Positions 24,079 through 64,000 are shown, counted from the stretch's first letter. The stretch: DNA of 64,000 bases from Escherichia coli (GCF_003790525.1 NZ_CP033633.1), one strand, 5' to 3'. Translations and numbers: made by a program. The notes: generated by a model not told the origin, from the letters alone.

Positions 24079-25560
24079 TCATACGGGAGATGGCGGTTCC
24101 CAGCGTTTATCCTGCTCCGGCGGAGGCAGTGATGCGTCATCGTTGCTGTTCGCCGCGATATAATCGCGGTAGTAGCGTTCACTTCCTTCCCGGTGATGAT
24201 CCACATCCGGTCGTGTAATCCTGTAGTCTTCGTGACCGGTACGGCCTGTCACATTATGCCAGGCAACCATTTCAGCAAAGACCTGGTTAAATTGTTTGTC
24301 GTTTCCTTCTGGTTCAAAGCCCATTCTGGGATCACGCTCAAACAATACAGGTGCAATCAAATCCAGTTTATCTGCCAGCGCATTGCGGTCATGGTGATTA
24401 CGGAAAACAACCCTGTCACCATAATCCGTACAGACAAACTCTCCCGTCCGACGGTCACGGAAACGAACACTCCCGTTCTTCTGCAAACGGGCCTCGAGAT
24501 CACCGGTATTACCGTATACCGGCGTTCCGCCCGGTTCACAAAGCACGACACAGCGGTCTGTTGTTGTTGTGCGTGACTTGTCTTTACGGCGATCGCGATA
24601 ATCCCAGCCTCTCAACTGCGATACAGCAGCCCTGTCTCCCTGAGCAGCCTGAATTTCGACCCACTGACGGTAAGAGGGTGGATACCACTTCCCGTCAGCA
24701 ATAAGTTTCTGTCGCTCATCCCTGATGTCTTCTTTCAGCCTGATCAACGCCTGCATTCGCTGAACTTCTGCAATGTGATAATGCAGCTTACGTAATGCCG
24801 GATCATCGTACTGCGCACGAATGTGTGACTTCCGCAGACGGCATGCCTGATGAATTTCCCGACAACGTTCCCCATTACGCAGATCTGGTTTACGCCATTG
24901 TTCACGCCATGCCAGATAGCGGGCACGCAGGTCAGCACGGGCCTCAGCTCTGGCTTCACGTCGCTGCCGGCGCAGCATTGGGTCACGTTTACTGCTGACC
25001 CCGTACCTGTCACTGACAGCCAGCTCCGGGTTATAGCGACTTTCAGGTTGCACCCTGTCAAACAAATCTGCTGGGGCACTCACAAAAGGTCCGGCCTGTG
25101 GCTCTGCACGCCCCAGAGTCAGATCAGGATGAATGCTGCTGGCCTTCACCGGCGTTTGCTCATGATTAAAGGCATCAACGACAACAAGCCCGTGATGTTG
25201 TTTCTGTAGCATCAGTCCCTGTTGTGCAAACAGCTCATGACAACGCTGCCAGGTAAACTCACCCTGTGTGATCATTTCTTCAATCTGAGGGCTACAATGG
25301 CTGATGCTGTATCCCCACAGACTTTCTTTATCAGAAAACAGTTCGCGTTTGATATCCCCCTGCGGCCCCGTGCCTGTACGCATACGGTGCCATTCTTTAT
25401 CGGTCGCAGGACAGCTCTCCATACGACGACCACGGAAGCGTTCTGTTGGCGTAACCTGGCGGAAAATATCTGTTGGTACAGGCTGCCAGCCACCATCGAG
25501 TTGATTCACATTGTCGAGCGTCAGCAGTGACCATACGGTGTCAGCACGAACGGGAGTCTG
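24079..25560 (-). pseudogene. relaxase fragment: paralogue of the C-terminal ~490 aa of the NikB-like relaxase at 53701-56403; nuclease domain missing
   Basis: Long collinear similarity (QTPVRADxxWxLLTLxN...WHRMRTGxGPQGxIKRExFSDKESLWGY...) to the 900-aa relaxase but lacking the HxH relaxase motifs. Confidence 0.65.
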
Positions 25561-25599
25561 GTTATGATATTTTTCGGATCCCGGTGAAAAAAGAGAGAA

Positions 25600-25750: not shown

Positions 25751-25981
25751 ATGAGAACCGTATCTATTTTCAAAAATGGCAATAACCGCGCGATCCGTCT
25801 GCCCCGCGATCTGGATTTTGAGGGGGTGAGTGAGCTGGAGATTGTACGGGAAGGGGACAGAATCATTCTGCGTCCCCTCCGCCCGAGCTGGAGCTCATTC
25901 CTGGAGCTAGAAAAGGCCGATCCGGGCTTTATGACGGAACGCGAGGACGTTGTCTGCGACGAAGGACGATTTAACCTGTGA
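25751..25981 (+). CDS. vapB: VapB/VagC-type antitoxin (AbrB/SpoVT fold)
   Basis: 76-aa ORF MRTVSIFKNGNNRAIRLPRDL...; overlaps downstream PIN toxin. Confidence 0.8.
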   Translation: MRTVSIFKNGNNRAIRLPRDLDFEGVSELEIVREGDRIILRPLRPSWSSFLELEKADPGFMTEREDVVCDEGRFNL

Positions 25982-26394
25982 ACAAGATCTATATGCTCGA
26001 CACGAACATCTGCTCGTTCATCATGCGCGAGCAGCCTGAAGCAGTGCTTAAGAATCTGGAGCAGGCGGTGCTGCGCGGTCACCGTATAGTGGTCTCGGCC
26101 ATCACCTACTCCGAGATGCGCTTCGGCGCCACCGGTCCAAAGGCATCGCCACGCCACGTGCAGCTGGTTGACGCGTTCTGCGCCCGTCTCGATGCCATCC
26201 TGCCCTGGGATCGCGCTGCGGTGGATGCAACCACGGAGGTTAAGGTGGCGCTGCGCCTCGCCGGCACGCCGATCGGTCCGAACGACACGGCGATCGCCGG
26301 GCACGCCATCGCCACCGGGGCAATACTGGTGACGAATAATGTGAGAGAGTTTGAGCGGGTGCCTGGACTGGTACTGGAAGACTGGGCAGGATAA
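25978..26394 (+). CDS. vapC: VapC/VagD PIN-domain toxin
   Basis: 138-aa ORF MLDTNICSF... with acidic PIN residues; hairpin terminator at 26402-26425. Confidence 0.85.
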   Translation: MNKIYMLDTNICSFIMREQPEAVLKNLEQAVLRGHRIVVSAITYSEMRFGATGPKASPRHVQLVDAFCARLDAILPWDRAAVDATTEVKVALRLAGTPIGPNDTAIAGHAIATGAILVTNNVREFERVPGLVLEDWAG

Positions 26395-26955
26395 AGGAGT
26401 AAGGCCGCCCCCGACGGCCTTACCACTATTTTGCGATGTCAGTCGTATTCATTTTCAGCGTTAAAAAAGGGCTCTATACGAATACGTGTATCAGCGTGAG
26501 TAAGTTTCGGCGGCCTGATAAATCCACTATTTCCCAGCTGGACAGCCAGTTGCCACATGGCATCACTACGGGGAATGCTACGATAATTCCTCTCTGTGAG
26601 GAAAGCGGCATAATCCTGATGCCCGAACGTCATGAGCACCTGTCTGATGAACTTGTGTGACCCACCGTCATTTTTAAGACATTGCATCAGCAGTGCCTGC
26701 TTCTGCCGGTCATCGGTTATTTTGGTGGAGAACCTTATCAGGGCTTGCTGGCTGAGAAGTGGTGCCTCAGAGAGCAGGGCTTCATCTTTTTCCCAGAGCC
26801 AGTTCAGGATACTGATACAGACTTCATCTGCAATCTTATCGCCATTCAGAATTAAACGAGTAATCCCCAGGTCAAACTGGTCATCAGCAAATAAAACAAG
26901 CTGAACCGCCCCGGGAATCCTGGAGACTAAACTCCCTGATAAAGAGGTAAACAGA

Positions 26956-41744: not shown

Positions 41745-42300
41745 CTTCGGCTCCCGGCTGCCTGGCGGCATCCGGTCGTCAGGCCCGACTCCGACAGGCA
41801 GCTGCTGGCGCACCCGCCAGTCTCCGCCGAACCCGCTGGCGCGGTTTCGGGCTGTCGCTACGGTCCGATGCGTGAAAACCCGGGCTTGCAGCGACCGTTC
41901 CGGTCGCGCCGCCTCTGTCGCGCCGTGACCTGCGCTCCCTGCACACCTGACGGTGTGTGAGGAAACTGCGCCTGATGGCGCAGCAGTCTTCCCTCCTGCC
42001 GCCACCTCTGCGGCCTGTTTCCCGCTGTGGACTTTCCGGGGGGCAGACGTAACCCCCTCCCGTTCCATCTGTCCAGGGTGAGATGCACCGGCCACAAAAT
42101 TTTTAGCCATGAACCCGGCTAAAAATTTTGCGTCCGCCCCCGGACAGCTGTCCCGTGAGGCGGTAAACGGGCCCCCATCGGAAAGGTCCACTGCGGGGAG
42201 AAACCCCTGTGAAGTGGACGGCAGGAGGAGCTTTCGCTCCTCTGAAGGGGCACATGAACGTCCCGTCGCCGGTATCCGGTTTATCTCACATCTTTCAGTC
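41745..42300 (+). repeat. structured non-coding repeat, family B copy 1 (ssi/Frpo-like candidate) upstream of ssb
   Basis: ~555 bp GC-rich, many internal palindromes; paralogous to 48098-48640 and 51470-51850. Confidence 0.6.
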
Positions 42301-48097: not shown

Positions 48098-48640
48098 CTT
48101 CGGCTCCCGGCTGCCTGGCGGCATCCGGTCGTCAGGCCCGACTCCGACAGGCAGCTGCTGGCGCACCCGCCAGTCTCCGCCGAACCCGCTGGCGCGGTTT
48201 CGGGCTGCCGCTACGGTCCGATGTCTGAAAAACCAGGCCTGCAGCGACCGTTCCGGTCGCGCCGCCCCTGTCGCGCCGGAAACGGCGCTCCCTGCACACC
48301 TGACGGTGTGTAAGGCCACTGCGCCTGATGGCGCAGTTGTCTGCCCTTCCGCCGCCACCCCTGCGGCCTGTTTCCCGCTGTGGACTTTCCGGGGGCTGAA
48401 GCGGCCACAACACGTTTCAGCCGTCCAGGGGAGAGATGTACCAGCCACAAAACTTTTTGCCGCAGGCGTCAAAAACTTTTGCGTCTGCCCCCGGACAACT
48501 GCCCCGTGCCGTGGCAGTCGCTGCCCCATCGGAAAGGTCCACTGCGGGGAGAAACCCCGAAGAAGTGGACGGCAGAAGGGGCTTTCGCCCCTCCGGGGAA
48601 TAACCGGTCGGCCCGGCGACCTGATTCAGCAGAAGGAGAC
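48098..48640 (+). repeat. structured non-coding repeat, family B copy 2
   Basis: Paralogue of 41745-42300. Confidence 0.6.
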
Positions 48641-49440: not shown

Positions 49441-49504
49441 TTAACCCTTGCCGTCTGCCTGTGCAGGCGGCAGGATACGTTCAGACATCTCACCAGGAGG
49501 AACC

Positions 49505-50467
49505 GTGAGTAAGAAGAAAACCACCACGACGCCCACGCCGCATGATGCCGCGTTCCGGTCGTTCCTGGCGAACCCCGACGTCGCCAGAGATTTTCTGGAA
49601 CTGCATCTTCCGGCGGAGTACCGGCAGTTGTGCGACCTGTCCACGCTGAAGCTGGAACCCGCCACCTTTGTTGAGCCGGACCTGCATCAGTACGCCAGCG
49701 ATATCCTCTGGAGTGTGAAAACCACCGGGGGTGAAGACGGCTATATTTATACGCTCATCGAGCACCAGAGCACCGAAAATCTGTACATGCCTTTCCGCAT
49801 GTTACGTTACAGTGTGGCGGCGATGCAGAGACATCTGGAGCAGCACAAAACATTGCCACTGGTGATTCCGGTGCTGTTCTATCATGGTGAGCGCAGCCCG
49901 TACCCGTACAGCATGAACTGGCTGGACTGTTTTGAGGATCCGGCGCTTGCGGCTAAAATATACACAAAGCCGTTTCCGCTGGTTGATATCACTGTCGTTG
50001 ATGACAATGAAATCATGAACCATCGCCGGATGGCCGCACTGACGCTGCTGATGAAGCATATCCGCCATCGTGACATGATGGAGCTGCTGGACAAACTCCC
50101 GCAGGTCATGGTGGAAATTTCAGACGAGCAGGTGCGTGTTCTGATTCATTACATCGTTAACGCAGGGGACTCTGTATCACCGGAATTTATGCGGGCGCTG
50201 GCTGAGCGTCTGCCGCAGCATGAGGATAAACTGATGACTATTGCCGAACGTCTTGAGCAGCAAGGAATACAGAAAGGAATACAGCAGGGAATACAGCAGG
50301 GAATACAGCAGGGAATACAGCAGGGAATACAGCAGGGAATACAGAAAGGCCGCATGGAGGAGAAGCAGGATATTGCGCGTCAGCTTCAGAAAACGGGAAT
50401 GCCATCTGCACAAATCTGTCAGATCACCGGACTTTCCGAAGCTGAACTGAAGAACATCACTCACTGA
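49505..50467 (+). CDS. Rpn-family (YhgA-like, PD-(D/E)XK) recombination-promoting nuclease with repeat-containing C-terminal tail
   Basis: GTG start with SD caggagga; N-terminal HDAAFRSFL...DFLELHLP...IEHQS...FRMLRYS motifs; C-terminal GIQ[QK] x7 repeat then conserved tail. Confidence 0.75.
   Translation: MSKKKTTTTPTPHDAAFRSFLANPDVARDFLELHLPAEYRQLCDLSTLKLEPATFVEPDLHQYASDILWSVKTTGGEDGYIYTLIEHQSTENLYMPFRMLRYSVAAMQRHLEQHKTLPLVIPVLFYHGERSPYPYSMNWLDCFEDPALAAKIYTKPFPLVDITVVDDNEIMNHRRMAALTLLMKHIRHRDMMELLDKLPQVMVEISDEQVRVLIHYIVNAGDSVSPEFMRALAERLPQHEDKLMTIAERLEQQGIQKGIQQGIQQGIQQGIQQGIQQGIQKGRMEEKQDIARQLQKTGMPSAQICQITGLSEAELKNITH
50234..50467 (+). CDS. putative intragenic small ORF (RpnS-like) from an internal in-frame SD+ATG within the Rpn gene
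   Basis: gagga-N7-ATG at 50234; product MTIAERLEQQ(GIQx)n...TGLSEAELKNITH parallels the two stand-alone downstream cassettes. Confidence 0.4.
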   Translation: MTIAERLEQQGIQKGIQQGIQQGIQQGIQQGIQQGIQKGRMEEKQDIARQLQKTGMPSAQICQITGLSEAELKNITH

Positions 50468-50475
50468 TGAGAACC

Positions 50476-50506
50476 ACAAAGCCCGGCAAAATGCCGGGTT
50501 TTTTTG
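50476..50506 (+). terminator. hairpin + T-run after the Rpn gene
   Basis: aagcccggcaaaatgccgggttttttt. Confidence 0.6.
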
Positions 50507-50529
50507 TCAGCAGGAGCAGAGCAAACAGT

Positions 50530-50703
50530 ATGACGATTGCAGAACGTCTTGAGCAAAAAGGTCGCCAGGAGGGCAGGATGGAAGGTGCGCTTGAAAAAGC
50601 CCTGGCTATTGCGTGCCAGCTTCAGAAAATGGGGATGACGCCGGAGCAGATTAAGCAGGCTACCGGACTGTCCGAAGCTGAACTGAAAAAAATCATTCAC
50701 TGA
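50530..50703 (+). CDS. stand-alone Rpn C-terminal-tail paralogue (orphan RpnS-like cassette 1)
   Basis: 57 aa MTIAERLEQKGRQEGRMEGALEKALAIACQLQKMGMTPEQIKQATGLSEAELKKIIH; own SD and ATG. Confidence 0.5.
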   Translation: MTIAERLEQKGRQEGRMEGALEKALAIACQLQKMGMTPEQIKQATGLSEAELKKIIH

Positions 50704-50761: not shown

Positions 50762-50992
50762 ATGACTATTGCAGAACGTCTTATACAGAAAGGTTTCGAC
50801 GAAGGTTTTAAAGAAAGTTTTAAAGAAAGTTTTAAAGAAGGCTTTAAAGAAGGCTTTAAAGAAGGGGCGCTTGAAGTGGCGCGGGAAATAGCCTGCCGGC
50901 TGCGGGATATAGGCTGGCCGCCGGAACGGATTCAGGAGGTCACGGGACTTTCCGGTGAAGAACTGAAAAAGCTGTTTCCTGATGAGCAGTAG
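50762..50992 (+). CDS. stand-alone Rpn C-terminal-tail paralogue (orphan RpnS-like cassette 2) with FKE[SG] repeats
   Basis: 76 aa MTIAERLIQKGFDEGFKESFKESFKEGFKEGFKEGALEVAREIACRLRDIGWPPERIQEVTGLSGEELKKLFPDEQ. Confidence 0.5.
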   Translation: MTIAERLIQKGFDEGFKESFKESFKEGFKEGFKEGALEVAREIACRLRDIGWPPERIQEVTGLSGEELKKLFPDEQ

Positions 50993-51022: not shown

Positions 51023-51274
51023 TCACACATCCTCTGCCGTTTCCCCCAGTTCATTTTCCAGACGCCTGATGATATCTGCCTTACGCATCCCCTGCATGTG
51101 AGGCAGCAGGTCACGGACTGAAAGAGCCTGGGTGGTCCTCCAGACGGTGACGTCCACCTGTTCCGCATTTTCCCAGGCGTGCCATGTTCTCTGCGTCACG
51201 CCAAATTCTCTGGCCGCTTTTTCGCGTGACCAGAGCATGCTTTTTCGCCAGATTCGCAGTTCCCAGCCGGTCAT
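51023..51274 (-). CDS. small putative DNA-binding regulator (HTH-like), antisense to the leading-region block
   Basis: 83-aa ORF; promoter-side intergenic region carries GTGAA-N5-TTCAC palindromes. Confidence 0.4.
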   Translation of the reverse strand: MTGWELRIWRKSMLWSREKAAREFGVTQRTWHAWENAEQVDVTVWRTTQALSVRDLLPHMQGMRKADIIRRLENELGETAEDV

Positions 51275-51291: not shown

Positions 51292-51374
51292 GTGAAAAAA
51301 CTTCACTTTATTTTATCACCATAATTGCCAAATCAGCGCGATAAATAAGTGTGAAAAAAGTGAAGAAATTTCAC
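51292..51374. promoter_or_regulatory. two 15-bp palindromes GTGAA-N5-TTCAC (51292-51306, 51360-51374): candidate operator pair
   Basis: gtgaaaaaacttcac and gtgaagaaatttcac, plus extra GTGAA half-site at 51351. Confidence 0.45.
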
Positions 51375-51469: not shown

Positions 51470-51850
51470 TTTTCTCCGGTCGCGCCGGATGCGGCGCTCC
51501 CTGCACACCTGACGGTGTGTAAGGCCACTGCGCCTGATGGCGCAGCTGTCTCTGCCTGTCTGCCGCCGCACTGCGGCCCGTTCTCCGCAGACGAACTTTC
51601 CGGGGGTACATACACGACCACATCCCGTTTCAGTCGTCCAGGGGAGAGATGTACCAGCCACAAAACTTTTTGCCGCAGGCGTCAAAAACTTTTGCGTCTG
51701 CCCCCGGACAACTGCCCCGTGACGTGGTGAGCGTCCCCCGTCGGAAAGGTCCACTGCGGGGAAATCCCCGAAGACCCGGACGGCAGAAGGAGCTTCGCTC
51801 CTCCGGGAAATGACCTGGCTGACCCGGCAGTCGTGACGATGAGGAGACAA
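51470..51850 (+). repeat. structured non-coding repeat, family B copy 3 (5'-truncated)
   Basis: Collinear with the 3' ~380 bp of 48098-48640. Confidence 0.55.
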
Positions 51851-53139: not shown

Positions 53140-53350
53140 GTTTCATGTTGAAGTCTGATTTTATCATCAAAAACTGACTCCTGGCAGGGCTGCGCCCTGC
53201 CTCTGCCGTCTGCATAAGACTATGATGCACAAAAATAACAGGCTATAATGGCCTGAAAAACGGGACAGGATGTGTAATCGTATAACCGCGCACGCACGGC
53301 TATACGATTACCACCTGGTCAGGGCTTTGCCCCGACACCCTGGTAAGGAG
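53140..53350. promoter_or_regulatory. candidate origin of transfer (oriT) with inverted repeats, upstream of nikA-like gene
   Basis: IR GGCAGGGC-TGC-GCCCTGCC (53183-53201) and perfect 11-bp IR GTAATCGTATA-N14-TATACGATTAC (53273-53308). Confidence 0.4.
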
Positions 53351-53356
53351 CAGACC

Positions 53357-53689
53357 ATGAGTGAGAAGAAAAACCGAAGTGGTAGTGAGAAACGGCAAAA
53401 GAATGTCCTCATTGCTGTTCGTTTTTCACCAGAAGAGGCTGATATTGTTAAAGAAAAGGCAGAAAAAAACGGACTGACAGTTTCAACTCTGATAAGAAAA
53501 ACTGTGCTGGGAAAACAGATAAATGCCCGCATTGACGAAGATTTTTTGAAAGAGCTGATGCGTCTTGGTCGCCTGCAGAAGCATCTGTTTGTGGAAGGAA
53601 AACGCACGGGAGATAAAGAGTATGCAGAGGTTCTCGTTGCTATTACAGAACTTGCTAATACTCTGCGAAGAGATTTAATGGGACGCTGA
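53357..53689 (+). CDS. nikA: relaxosome accessory protein (NikA/MbeC-like ribbon-helix-helix)
   Basis: 110 aa; MSEKKNRSGSEKRQKNVLIAVRFSPEEADIVKEKAEKNGLTVSTLIRK...; immediately precedes the relaxase. Confidence 0.65.
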   Translation: MSEKKNRSGSEKRQKNVLIAVRFSPEEADIVKEKAEKNGLTVSTLIRKTVLGKQINARIDEDFLKELMRLGRLQKHLFVEGKRTGDKEYAEVLVAITELANTLRRDLMGR

Positions 53690-53700
53690 GATAATCGCTG

Positions 53701-56403
53701 ATGAATGCCATCATTCCGAAAAAAAGACGCGACGGAAAGTCTTCTTTTGAAGACCTGATTGCGTACACCTCAGTGCGGGATGATGTGCCGGAAGATGAAC
53801 TCAGGCCAGACACGGAAATGAAAGCTGAGATTCCGCACCGGAACCGCTTCAGACGTCTTGTTGATTATGCAACACGTCTGCGTAATGAAAAATTTGTTTC
53901 CCTGATTGATGTGATGAAAGACGGCAGTCAGTGGGTGAATTTCTATGGTGTGACCTGCTTTCATAACTGTTTGTCTCTTGAATCTGCGGCTGAAGAAATG
54001 CAGAAAGCAGCAGACCTTGCTCATTTTTCCAAAGATGATACAGATCCTGTTTTTCACTATATTCTCTCCTGGCCTGCGCACGAAAGTCCGCGTTCTGAGC
54101 AGCTTTTTGACTGTGTGCGTCACACCCTGAAATCCCTTGAGCTGTCAAAACATCAGTATGTGGCAGCCGTTCATACAGACACGGATAACCTGCATGTACA
54201 TGTTGCAGTGAATCGTGTCCACCCTGAAACCGGCTATATCAATTGCCTTCCGTGGAGCCAGGAAAAACTCAGCCGTGCATGTCGTGAACTTGAACTTAAG
54301 CACGGATTCGCGCCTGATAATGGCTGCTTTGTGCATGCACCCGGCAACCGTATTGTGCGCAAAACAGCGCTGGTACGTGAGCGCCGTAATGCCTGGCGAC
54401 GCGGGAAAAAGCAGACGTTCAGGGAATATATTGCGCAGATGTCGATTGCCGGGCTGCGTGAAGAGCCCGCACAGGACTGGTTATCTTTGCATAAACGGCT
54501 GGCCAGTGATGGTCTGTATATCACGATGCAGGAAGGGGAACTGGTGGTGAAGGATGGCTGGGACAGAGCGCGGGAAGGTGTTGCACTCAGTTCGTTCGGA
54601 CCGTCATGGACAGCTGAAAAACTGGGGCGGAAACTGGGGGAATATCAGCCTGTACCGACAGATATTTTCAGTCAGGTGGGGGCACCCGGTCGTTATGATC
54701 CGGAAGCCATTAACGTGGATATCCGGCCGGAAAAAGTGGCAGAAACGGAGAGTCTGAAACAGTACGCCTGTCGTCACTTTGCTGAACGCTTACCGAAAAT
54801 GGCGCGAAATGGTGAACTGAAAAGTTGCCTGGCTGTACACCGTACTCTGGCAGAGGCGGGATTATGGATGGGGATTCAGCACGGGCATCTGGTACTGCAT
54901 GATGGATTTGAACCACAGCAGACGCCGGTTCGTGCAGACAGTATATGGCCGTTGTTAACGCTGGAAAATATCAGAAAACTGAATGGCGGCTGGCAGTCTG
55001 TACCGAAGGATATTTTTACTCAGGTTGTACCACAAAGTCGCTTTAGTGGGCATCGAATGGATATGCATCCGGTCAGTGATCATGAATGGCACAGAATGAG
55101 AACAGGGGCTGGCCCACAGGGGGCAATTAAGCGGGAGATTTTCTCTGACAAAGAGAGTCTGTGGGGATATGCAGTCAGCCATTGTGCCCGTGATATTCAG
55201 TACATGATCTCTGAAGGGCGCTTTAGCTGGCAGAACTGCCATGAACTGTTTGCCCGCAGTGGACTGATGTTACAGAAACTGCATCATGGTCTTGTGATTG
55301 TGGATGCGTTTAATCATGACCAGACACCGGTTAAAGCCAGCAGCATTCATCCGGATTTGACTTTGTCCAGAGCAGAGCCGCAGGCCGGGCCATTTGAAAT
55401 TGCAGCGGCGGATATTTTCGATCGGGTGAAGCCTGAAAGCCGTTATAACCCTGATATGGCTGTCAGTGACAGTAAGGAACCCGGGTTTAAACGGGATCCT
55501 GAATTGCGCCGCCGTCGTCGTGAAACCCGTGCAGCTGCGCGGGAAGATTTACGTGCGCGTTACCTTGCATGGAAGGAGCACTGGCGTAAACCCGATTTAC
55601 GTTACGGCGAACGGTTACGGGAAGTTCATGCTGCCTGCCGCCGGCGCAAGGCGCATATCCGCGTACAGTTCAGGGATCCGCAAGTGCGTAAGCTGCATTA
55701 CCATATTGCGGAAGTGCAGCGAATGCAGGCGCTGATCAGGCTGAAGGAAAGCGTCAGGGAAGAGCGACTGTCGCTGATGGCGGAAGGTAAGTGGTACCCG
55801 CTGTCTTACAGGCAGTGGGTGGAGCAGATGGCGGTTCAGGGGGATTCTGCTGCTGTATCTCAGTTACGTGGATGGAATTATCGCGACAGAAGGAATGATG
55901 AGGTGCTTTTAACCACGCCTCAACGCTGTGTGGTTCTTTGTGAACCAGGCTCCACCCCGATTCACAGGGATATCGGTGGCATGGTGGCGACTTTGCAGCG
56001 TAATGGCAGTGTGCGTTTCCGTGATGCGACAACAGGAGAGTACGTCTGTACAGATTATGGTGATCGCGTTGTTTTCAGCAACAGTGCCGATAACAAAACA
56101 CTGAAGAAAAGGATGGTCAGGGTGTCCAGTGTGCTTTTTGCAAGGGATCCCCGAATGGGGTTTGAGCCGGAAGGTCAGGATGCACAATTTAACCGTATGT
56201 TTGCTGATATGGTTGCGTGGAAAAACGTGCAGCGGGATGAGCGTAAGGGGCACTACAGGATAAGTCGTTCTGATGTTGATCAACTGAGGGTCAGTAGTGA
56301 AAAACGTTTTCGTGATTATCTTAAAGGGCGTGATACTGAATCACACACTTACCATCATGCAACGGATGAAAATAAGTGGGAGCCGCCATCACCGGGGATG
56401 TAA
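53701..56403 (+). CDS. nikB: MOBP-type conjugative relaxase (NikB-like)
   Basis: 900 aa; relaxase His-triad motif AAVHTDTDNLHVHVAVNRV in N-terminal domain; size and context match IncI1 NikB. Confidence 0.75.
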   Translation: MNAIIPKKRRDGKSSFEDLIAYTSVRDDVPEDELRPDTEMKAEIPHRNRFRRLVDYATRLRNEKFVSLIDVMKDGSQWVNFYGVTCFHNCLSLESAAEEMQKAADLAHFSKDDTDPVFHYILSWPAHESPRSEQLFDCVRHTLKSLELSKHQYVAAVHTDTDNLHVHVAVNRVHPETGYINCLPWSQEKLSRACRELELKHGFAPDNGCFVHAPGNRIVRKTALVRERRNAWRRGKKQTFREYIAQMSIAGLREEPAQDWLSLHKRLASDGLYITMQEGELVVKDGWDRAREGVALSSFGPSWTAEKLGRKLGEYQPVPTDIFSQVGAPGRYDPEAINVDIRPEKVAETESLKQYACRHFAERLPKMARNGELKSCLAVHRTLAEAGLWMGIQHGHLVLHDGFEPQQTPVRADSIWPLLTLENIRKLNGGWQSVPKDIFTQVVPQSRFSGHRMDMHPVSDHEWHRMRTGAGPQGAIKREIFSDKESLWGYAVSHCARDIQYMISEGRFSWQNCHELFARSGLMLQKLHHGLVIVDAFNHDQTPVKASSIHPDLTLSRAEPQAGPFEIAAADIFDRVKPESRYNPDMAVSDSKEPGFKRDPELRRRRRETRAAAREDLRARYLAWKEHWRKPDLRYGERLREVHAACRRRKAHIRVQFRDPQVRKLHYHIAEVQRMQALIRLKESVREERLSLMAEGKWYPLSYRQWVEQMAVQGDSAAVSQLRGWNYRDRRNDEVLLTTPQRCVVLCEPGSTPIHRDIGGMVATLQRNGSVRFRDATTGEYVCTDYGDRVVFSNSADNKTLKKRMVRVSSVLFARDPRMGFEPEGQDAQFNRMFADMVAWKNVQRDERKGHYRISRSDVDQLRVSSEKRFRDYLKGRDTESHTYHHATDENKWEPPSPGM

Positions 56404-56471
56404 AAATCATGTAGACAGGGTGATTAAATCACCGTAATGTGTCCTCGTTGTGTATACATTATGGGGGAGAT

Positions 56472-56720
56472 ATGCGAACACAGGTGACACTGCAAAAATG
56501 GGGCAACAGTATTGCTCTCCGGTTAACCGGAAATCTGAAAACCGTGCCGGGTTTTTCGGCAGGAGATGTGGTTGATGTGGAAATCAGTGAGAAAGGATTG
56601 ATCGTGGAAAAACCGGTGAGACCTCGTCTTACAGAGGCTGTATTGCTTGCGGGGCTGACGCCATTTTCCGCGCATGCAGATGAAGCTGCCACTCTTCTTG
56701 ATAAGGAGAGTGAGTTCTGA
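56472..56720 (+). CDS. MazE/PemI-like antitoxin (AbrB/SpoVT fold)
   Basis: 82 aa MRTQVTLQKWGNSIALRLTGNL...; stop overlaps toxin start. Confidence 0.65.
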   Translation: MRTQVTLQKWGNSIALRLTGNLKTVPGFSAGDVVDVEISEKGLIVEKPVRPRLTEAVLLAGLTPFSAHADEAATLLDKESEF

Positions 56721-57064
56721 TGTTTGTTCCAAAGCGTGGTGATATTTGCTGGCTTGATTTTGAACCCCAAAAAGGAAAAGAAATTGGCAAATATCGTCCG
56801 GCATTAATCCTGTCCCATGAGCAATATAATCGTTTAACAGGGCTTGTCATATGCTGCCCTGTCAGTACGAGTATCCGGGGCGCTCCAACAGAGGTTCCTG
56901 TTACTAATCTCGATGCACCAAGTGTGGTGGCCACAACGCTCATACAGACACTTGACTGGCGGCAAAGGCAAGTGCGTTTAATTACGGAAGCAGAAGAGGG
57001 CGTATTTGATGAGGTGCTTGAGAGAGTGATCACTCTGATTGGTGGTGAACATTTACTGAAGTGA
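56720..57064 (+). CDS. MazF/PemK-like endoribonuclease toxin
   Basis: 114 aa MFVPKRGDICWLDFEPQKGKEIGKYRPALILSHEQYN... Confidence 0.8.
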   Translation: MFVPKRGDICWLDFEPQKGKEIGKYRPALILSHEQYNRLTGLVICCPVSTSIRGAPTEVPVTNLDAPSVVATTLIQTLDWRQRQVRLITEAEEGVFDEVLERVITLIGGEHLLK

Positions 57065-57375: not shown

Positions 57376-57702
57376 ATGACTAAAAATACTCGTTTTTCCC
57401 CCGAAGTCCGTCAACGGGCAGTTCGTATGGTTCTGGAAAGCCAGGGCGAATATGACTCACAATGGGCGGCAATTTGTTCCATTGCTCCAAAGATTGGCTG
57501 TACGCCAGAGACCCTGCGTGTCTGGGTTCGCCAGCATGAGCGGGATACCGGGGGCGGTGATGGTGGGCTCACCACCGCTGAACGTCAGCGTCTGAAAGAG
57601 CTGGAACGCGAAAATCGTGAACTGCGCCGCAGTAACGATATCCTTCGCCAGGCTTCCGCTTATTTTGCGAAGGCGGAGTTCGACCGCCTCTGGAAAAAAT
57701 AA
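57376..57702 (+). CDS. IS629 transposase OrfA (variant)
   Basis: 108 aa, one substitution relative to copies 1 and 2. Confidence 0.8.
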
Positions 57703-58095
57703 TGCCACTGCTGGATAAGCTGCGTGAGCTGCAGTGAGCTGCATATTGCCCCGTCAACGTATTACCACTGTCAGCAACAGCAGCATCATCCTGATAAACG
57801 CAGCGCCCGTGCGCAGCGTGATGACTGGCTGAAGAAAGAGATACAGCGCGTATACGATGAAAATCACCAGGTGTACGGTGTGCGTAAAGTCTGGCGTCAG
57901 TTGTTACGGGAAGGTATCAGAGTGGCCAGATGCACTGTGACACGTCTTATGGCGGTTATGGGTTTTGCCGATGTTCTCCGGGGTAAAAGGTCCGCATTAC
58001 CGTCAGCCGGAAAGCCGTTGCCGCAGGCGACCGCGTAAACCGTCATTTCGTGGCAGAACGTCCTGACCAGCTGTGGGTGGCTGATTTTACTTACG

Positions 58096-60835
<2,740 letters not shown>

Positions 60836-63438: not shown

Positions 63439-64000
63439 TTATGCCGTGCGCACAGTCATAAGAAGCTCATGCAGAAAGCATGTAAATTTTTTAAGACGCA
63501 GATATATAAGGTATTTTCGCCATTCTGCGAGGGGAAAACTCGTAAGTTTCATAACACAAAAATTGTACGGGTAATCCGAAGGTAAAAATAACGTACCTCA
63601 ATCACCAGCTACTGGTGACATCCGTTTCCAGAGGCTAAACGGATGTTGCCGCCATACAGGCATCCTCTTCCAGGCTCATGGGATATTGCAGTCACCCGAA
63701 GGCGCTTCTCTCAGACCTCCGGGAGATTGGTTGGTCGCCGGAGCGACAGATATTCAAAAGGCATTTTGCTCCATGAGAACAAAAAATCAACAGTATTCTA
63801 GACAAGGAACCGGAGACAGGCTAAAAAAACTGTGGGCGCGTTTCTGGCAGTCAAGAAAACCATGGGGTTAGTAAGATTATGCAACAGGAGCCAGGAACGC
63901 GTTCCGCTTCTTCTGTAAGAGGCGCTCAGAATGTGCTTAATGCTTCTTTTAATGGTATCAGAGATGAACGGGCCTGAGTCATTCCGGCAGGTTATAGCGT

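Follow-up and report, generated by a model that had tools for sequence, protein, structure and literature searches.

[quoted passage not shown] The assignment is carried by what the analysis gives directly for the oriT, and this is homology, anatomy, conservation, covariation and the families of the adjoining proteins. The site is an ordinary and already known one, and repeat/NikA variants of such oriTs are already in print. In the literature, no experiment on this oriT sequence variant was found. As a textbook relaxosome site it has little weight as a discovery, and its practical value lies in annotation, where the core of the oriT, the predicted nick and the transfer direction can now be assigned for this IncK2/Z-like plasmid from avian E. 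coli; public annotation leaves the oriT unlabelled and calls NikA 'MobA'.

Anatomy and conservation of the oriT

A candidate oriT had been proposed in an earlier note on this DNA, in an interval of about 230 bp upstream of a nikA-like gene. The length is about right, as the intergenic interval has 227 bp, and the proposal is supported by homology to the experimentally defined oriT of R64 together with the presence of NikA and NikB orthologues. The interval runs collinearly with the DNA between yggA and nikA of the IncI1 plasmid R64, where the R64 oriT lies (NC_005014 66816-67047), and in the alignment of the two the nick region is identical, the 8-bp repeat is present, and the same distance of 8 nt is found between the nick region and the long repeat. 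The mean column identity of this intergenic alignment is 96%, with the substitutions concentrated in the long repeat. The oriT of R64 has about 93 bp, lies immediately upstream of nikA, and comprises inverted repeats of 17 bp and 8 bp, a 'repeat A' that is bound by NikA, and a nick region (PMC4743918, PMC3817090). The corresponding elements of the window are listed in Table 1; on the minus strand, their layout in 5' to 3' direction is GGGTGTCGGGGC-AAA-GCCCTGAC (the 8-bp repeat), CAGGTG, the long repeat, and ACATCCTG^TCCCG. For R64, Furuya and Komano reportedly defined oriT cores of 44 bp and 92 bp and described a role in termination, and in their work of 1991 the long repeat is said to end 8 nt from the nick. 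The predicted nick of the window lies at the same register, 8 nt from the end of the long repeat.

Table 1. Features of the oriT region and its surroundings (positions in the window; a caret marks the predicted nick)
Feature	Position	Strand	Remarks
Frpo-like leading-region repeat nearest to oriT	51476-51828	-	one of three
yggA homologue, 111 aa	52789-53124	-	97% identical to R64 YggA; divergent from nikA
Palindrome GGCAGGGC-TGC-GCCCTGCC	53183-53201		exact; leading side of nic, outside the oriT core
TATAAT, candidate -10 of the nikAB (oriT operon) promoter	53244-53249	+	putative
oriT core	53256-53345	- (transferred strand)	homologous to the ~92-bp minimal R64 oriT; nick region, 17/18-bp and 8-bp repeats
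Nick region CACATCCTG^TCC	53263-53274	-	predicted nic between 53266 (G) and 53265 (T)
Long inverted repeat	53274-53311		counterpart of the R64 17-bp repeat
Repeat A (nick-proximal arm; NikA-binding arm in R64)	53274-53291
Repeat B (distal arm)	53294-53311
8-bp inverted repeat GTCAGGGC-TTT-GCCCCGAC	53318-53336		7/8 complementary; distal element of R64-type oriT
nikA, 110-aa ribbon-helix-helix relaxosome accessory protein	53357-53689	+	66% identical to R64 NikA
nikB, 900-aa MOBP relaxase	53701-56403	+	70% identical to R64 NikB, full length

Nick regions of MOBP systems follow the consensus (C/T)ATCCTG(C/T) (PMC3772185). The nick region of the window fits this consensus (YATCCTG^Y), and its 12-mer CACATCCTGTCC is invariant in all 17 aligned oriTs, R64 included, and has a single occurrence in the window. 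The shorter pattern YATCCTGY is found there at 19 sites, of which only the one in the nick region has an inverted repeat of at least 11 bp just 5' of it. By homology, the nick is predicted on the minus strand between G53266 and T53265. Another YATCCTGY site, at 26393 on the minus strand, resembles an oriT by its 9-bp hairpin but was rejected, as it consists of the stop-codon region of vapC and a terminator-like hairpin. In this segment (26380-26430, minus strand), which is made up of the end of vapC (25978-26394, plus strand) and the hairpin, TTATCCTGCCC is identical to the nick decamer of RP4, probably by chance. A second oriT in the window, considered on account of the truncated nikB gene described below, was ruled out, as the nick 12-mer and the 8-bp pattern each occur once in the window.

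The nick region is preceded by the long repeat, an imperfect repeat of the 17-bp type, with 8 nt between the end of its proximal arm and the nick. Its perfect cores of 11 bp, GTAATCGTATA (53274-53284) and TATACGATTAC (53301-53311), are separated by a spacer of 16 nt, and in their extended form the arms have 18 nt, are 89% complementary and leave 2 nt between them. The perfect 11-bp repeat had been recognized in the earlier note; its placement at 53273-53308 deviates by 1-3 nt, and the N14 given there for the spacer is too short. The 64 kb contain perfect 11-bp inverted repeats with spacers of up to 30 nt at three distinct sites, as compared to 0.23 seed matches per dinucleotide shuffle, and in shuffles of the 227-bp intergenic interval an 11-bp repeat came up in 0.12% of the trials. 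The pairing of the long repeat was followed in 17 oriTs that were aligned on the minus strand of the window, namely the window, R64 and 15 others, with 10 large plasmids (IncI1, I-gamma/K1, K2/Z and B/O types and an Enterobacter plasmid) and 7 small Col-type plasmids in the set. Eight of the 15 long-repeat pairs have changed on both sides, in 33 cells, and while 16 of 500 shuffles reach eight such pairs, none of the 500 reaches the observed covariation score or cell count. Pairing is kept in about 92.5-94% of the cells and goes down to 32-48% when the register is slid by 1-3 columns.

The second repeat, distal to the long one, reads GTCGGGGC-AAA-GCCCTGAC on the minus strand. Hardly any variation is seen in it across the 17 oriTs, R64 has identical arms, and the pattern turns up once in the window, with 0 occurrences expected by chance. 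When the minus strand of 53250-53350 is folded as single-stranded DNA, both hairpins form (-24.7 kcal/mol, z = -5.05).

Matches to the interval are found in more than 3,500 plasmid records. Small plasmids of the Col type (1.5-6.7 kb) match 53256-53345 only, and many of these small plasmids have no relaxase, some of them not even an annotated gene near the site. R64 has been shown to mobilise small plasmids via the R64-type oriT copies that they carry (PMC4743918). As the small plasmids share only this segment and as such copies are mobilised by R64, the functional core can be placed at about 53256-53345, with the GGCAGGGC palindrome outside. The range of 53140-53350 that the earlier note had assigned to the oriT therefore does contain it, but is wider than the functional core. 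The 101-bp segment 53250-53350 is found with at least 95% identity in about 211 of 3,668 matching plasmids, and many others have it at 84.5-86.4%; pSC138 (86.4%) was checked among the latter, and it carries the NikA of R64 and an R64-type repeat.

Relaxosome proteins and variants of the long repeat

The start of nikA is ATG 53357, which is preceded, at a distance of six bases, by AAGGAG at 53345-53350; the ATG at 53270, which opens the longest open reading frame, was rejected in its favour. NikA scores 111 bits against the NCBIfam MobA equivalog (cut-off 80), matches the solved N-terminal domain of NikA (2BA3, E = 2e-7), and has weak NCBIfam matches to TraJ and RelB. Its identity to R64 NikA is 49% in residues 1-55 and 80% in residues 56-110. 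NikB scores 416 bits against the TraI/MobA(P) relaxase family NF041893 (cut-off 250) and carries Tyr22 as well as HTDTDNLHVH from residue 158, which represents the HxDxDxxHxH motif. The oriT is thus adjoined by an operon for a ribbon-helix-helix NikA and a MOBP relaxase with its tyrosine and histidine triad, and nikA and nikB point away from the site, as had been expected of the relaxase operon.

Variation in the nick-proximal arm of the long repeat goes along with variation in the NikA segment that stands before the conserved RF(S/T) motif, and by homology to the solved domain of R64 NikA this segment would belong to the DNA-binding N-terminal part. Five combinations of repeat arm and NikA segment were drawn from 13 plasmids that were compared (Table 2).

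Table 2. Combinations of NikA segment and nick-proximal repeat arm
Class	NikA segment	Repeat arm
Window	QKNVLIAVRF	TATACGATTAC
R64	QKTVVRTLRF	TATTACAATTGC
pSEEH1578	QKTILRAVRF	TTATACAATTGC
B/O/K2/Z plasmids	RKRIVKFTARF	CCGACATTCCC
E. hormaechei plasmid	QKTVIKTLRF	TATTACAAATGC

The class of the window is common to p69-3818, pSCU-483-2 and pEF5-18-41_2. Since neither the nick region nor the 8-bp repeat varies in these oriTs and the long repeat changes in step with the NikA segment, the window can be regarded as one specificity variant of these oriTs. It does not belong to IncI1 in the strict sense, as defined by repeat A and the NikA segment of R64. An assignment to the IncI-gamma type (R621a) was rejected as well, since the NikA of R621a is the R64 NikA, with an identical protein accession; the window thus stands apart from the class of R64 as well as from that of R621a. 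Also in the case of IncZ and IncB plasmids, the 17-bp repeats have been found to differ along with NikA, with the 8-bp repeats unchanged and identical to those of R64 (PMC3817090).

It is a tentative idea, somewhat more doubtful than probable, that the long repeat and the N-terminal ribbon-helix-helix segment of NikA make up one exchangeable specificity cassette. The eight aligned I-complex plasmids share a near-identical leading-side flank, and the flank of the E. hormaechei plasmid is divergent. Mosaics that arise by relaxase-mediated recombination between oriTs would fit the class pattern, and so would diversifying selection. In the comparison of the window with R64, identity is about 97% over 52700 to about 53270 and 55-80% from the long repeat onward, with the drop at about 53262-53275, which is the nick region and repeat A, and the proteins show a step from 97% (YggA) to 66% (NikA) and 70% (NikB). 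This break is compatible with recombination at oriT, and also with a conserved leading region that abuts a diverged transfer region. Possibly the repeat/NikA classes are orthogonal in function and each has small-plasmid mimics of its own; if they are orthogonal, this would decide which small plasmids can be mobilised by each I-complex plasmid. In the 1,570-bp Col(MG828) plasmid NZ_CP070003.1, an oriT core is found at 289-396, with a nick-proximal arm (TATACGATTAC) identical to that of the window; this plasmid has no annotated gene near the site and is a candidate for a hitchhiker specific for the oriT class of the window.

Plasmid context, predicted transfer and alternative readings

The palindrome on the leading side is exact at 53183-53201, just as the earlier note had it, with arms at 53183-53190 and 53194-53201 and a loop of 3 nt. 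An 8-bp repeat such as GGCAGGGC/GCCCTGCC comes up in 1.2% of the shuffles of the 227-bp interval. Two divergent relatives have kept the palindrome by compensatory changes (GGCAGTGC/GCACTGCC and GGCAGGAC/GTCCTGCC), and R64 is one base short in the left arm. Its position overlaps the -35 of a sigma-70-like promoter directed toward the yggA homologue, and the segment shared by the small plasmids does not include it. Orf35, the YggA homologue of the related IncM plasmid pCTX-M3, is a repressor of nikAB-tra, and its deletion increases nikA transcripts about 40-fold (PMC6112013). It is thus a reasonable guess that the palindrome possibly serves as a putative operator of the divergent yggA/nikA promoter region. 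On the records of some homologues of the YggA protein, PGAP has placed the label 'molybdopterin-guanine dinucleotide biosynthesis protein MobC', which is absent in R64 and pEF5-18-41_2; a MobC-family assignment was rejected, as no Pfam, NCBIfam or PHROG family supports it. On the nikA side, TATAAT is invariant in nine aligned relatives, the divergent E. hormaechei plasmid included. It has no good -35, and the sigma-70 consensus scan reported no convincing nikAB promoter and also not the TATAAT itself. Transcripts from this putative promoter would run through the nick region and the repeats. A search with Rfam gave no family within the interval.

The segment 41000-64000 is 99.2% identical to pEF5-18-41_2, an IncK2/Z plasmid (MPF_I, MOBP) of E. 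coli from chicken, and the first 25 kb of the window match related avian E. coli plasmids. To the left of the site, pEF5-18-41_2 encodes an antirestriction protein, Ssb, a ParB-like protein, PsiB, PsiA, ArdA, an Rpn-family protein and a DUF4942 protein, which is typical of an I-complex leading region. That the leading-region genes are transcribed toward the oriT, as had been stated earlier, holds for 16 of 20 genes in this closest annotated plasmid, which are on the plus strand, but not for the gene nearest to the site, the divergent yggA homologue on the minus strand. Three Frpo-like repeats of 330-350 bp (41917-42242, 48267-48617 and 51476-51828) share one orientation and are 79-86% alike, and the minus strand of the last one folds as single-stranded DNA with -102.6 kcal/mol (z = -7.6). 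In IncI plasmids, Frpo sequences are known from the leading regions adjoining oriT and nikAB (PMC3817090), and the Frpo-like repeat near the oriT thus marks the DNA to its left as a leading region. Between the gene of a helix-turn-helix regulator (51023-51274, minus strand) and this repeat, there is a further perfect 11-bp inverted repeat at 51354/51370 (AAAAAGTGAAG...), with a similar AAAAAGTGAAAAAACTTCACTTT motif upstream at about 51290. The Rpn-family (recombination-promoting nuclease-like) reading frame at 49448-50467 (plus strand) contains a run of GIQQ/GIQK repeats, and its C-terminal 'TIAERLEQKG...' module recurs in two short reading frames downstream of it (50467-50703 and 50762-50992).

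From homology with R64 and RP4, we infer the binding of NikA, the exact nick position, the transfer direction and the role in termination as follows. The ribbon-helix-helix protein NikA would bind the nick-proximal arm 53274-53291 and thereby position the relaxase NikB on the adjoining nick region, where Tyr22 of NikB would cut the minus strand between G53266 and T53265 (5'-CACATCCTG^TCC-3') and stay on the 5' end. The minus strand would be exported in 5' to 3' direction, and with a nick in this strand the DNA of lower coordinates would thus enter the recipient first, beginning with the yggA homologue, the DUF4942 gene, the Frpo-like repeats, ardA, psiBA and ssb, and nikAB would come last. Both inverted repeats would be reconstituted at the trailing end, where they may serve termination and recircularisation. 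With this polarity, the leading region is 3' of the nick on the transferred strand and the tra genes are last. The predicted direction agrees with the mostly plus-strand leading genes, as the incoming minus strand would be their template, and with the Frpo-like repeats, as their strong fold is on the predicted T strand.

On the other side of nikB, where R64 has trbC, the window has a PemI/MazE-PemK/MazF-like toxin-antitoxin pair (56439-57064). Behind this pair come an element of the IS3 family (ALIL pseudoknot 57657-57743), a group II intron (60279-60365) and a match to STAXI RNA (63591-63748). In the closest plasmid, the TrbC match covers residues 1-692 of 763. With the trbCBA neighbourhood displaced and the TrbC match incomplete, the self-transmissibility of the host plasmid is not assured. 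At 24085-25566 (minus strand), a truncated second nikB is found that is 99% identical to residues 405-898 of R64 NikB; it has no relaxase domain and no nikA or oriT beside it, and it is a remnant of an IncI1-type plasmid within the IncK2/Z-like plasmid.

One may ask whether the oriT is intact in sequence but stranded, being a relic or a site that is mobilisable only in trans on a plasmid rearranged by IS elements and the group II intron. The insertions that follow nikB in place of trbC, the TrbC match that ends before the C-terminus, and the truncated second nikB, which points to a past rearrangement, are in line with this. However, nikA, nikB and all elements of the oriT are complete in length and agree with the 16 relatives at the conserved positions, the closest plasmid is typed as conjugative with MPF_I, and trbA, trbB and most of trbC remain. 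We therefore consider a stranded oriT unlikely, and it would in any case concern the transfer ability of the plasmid and not the identity of the site.

The other alternatives concern the palindromes themselves. The long palindrome could mainly be an operator or a 5'-UTR hairpin that controls nikAB and has no part in DNA processing, as the repeats lie between the invariant TATAAT and the nikA start and hence in the nikAB leader. Ribbon-helix-helix proteins commonly are autorepressors, and the weak matches of NikA to TraJ and RelB would be in line with such a function. Nevertheless, small plasmids keep the repeat and the nick region without having nikA or nikB, and the fixed register of 8 nt to an invariant nick is a requirement of a relaxosome and not of an operator. 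A mainly regulatory palindrome is thus very improbable, and regulatory and oriT roles may also coexist. Even less can be said for palindromes that arose by chance or form a rho-independent terminator of a neighbouring gene: 8-bp palindromes are indeed frequent, with 39 counted in the window, but an 11-bp repeat in the intergenic interval has a P of about 0.001, there is no T-run after the repeat, the terminator scan did not report it, and the repeat is conserved with covariation in 17 plasmids. By this covariation and by the homology to the R64 oriT, chance and terminator are refuted, and the R64-type oriT remains the preferred reading.

Comparison with known systems

The oriT of R64 and ColIb-P9 is the closest reference. 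It has the same position between a yggA homologue and nikA, the same CACATCCTGTCC, the same 8-nt distance and the same 8-bp repeat, its leading-side flank is about 97% identical, and NikA as well as NikB are orthologous. It differs in the arms of the long repeat, which are GCAATTGTAATA/TATTACAATTGC in R64 and GTAATCGTATA/TATACGATTAC in the window and are related by compensatory changes, and in the proteins, with only 49% identity in the N-terminal half of NikA and 70% in NikB. The IncB/O, IncZ and IncK2 plasmids p3521, pO26-CRL125 and pO111-CRL115 follow the same pattern, with 8-bp repeats identical to R64 and a differing 17-bp repeat and NikA (PMC3817090), and the C-terminal end RRDLMGR of NikA is common to these plasmids and the window. 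In those plasmids sampled here that have a repeat of the B/O/K2/Z type, however, the arms are GGGGAATGTC.../...GACATTCCC and the NikA segment is RKRIVKFTARF, which is another specificity class than that of the window; p3521 and pO26-CRL125 were compared by their description.

A further system for comparison is the IncP plasmid RP4/RK2 with its TraJ-TraI relaxosome (MOBP), which shares the nick core ATCCTG, an inverted repeat just 5' of the nick region, the family of the accessory protein (by the weak TraJ match of NikA), and a relaxase with Tyr22 and the three-histidine motif. Beyond the nick core there is no DNA similarity to RP4/RK2, the sequence of the repeat is another one, and the mating-pair system is MPF_T instead of MPF_I. 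No more than an analogy is provided by the conjugative pWBG749 family of Staphylococcus aureus, which has split up into several oriT subtypes, each mimicked by small plasmids (PMC8136818); sequences, relaxase family and hosts are unrelated to those of the window.

Among the carriers of R64-type oriT copies, the small Col-type plasmids, such as pEC156 and the nikA-bearing group of NTP16, pCERC7 and pU302S, share exactly the core 53256-53345. They differ from the window in that they have no relaxase gene, and most of them no nikA, which makes them dependent on a helper plasmid. For pEC156, mobilisation by R64 via a copy of the R64-type oriT has been demonstrated (PMC4743918).
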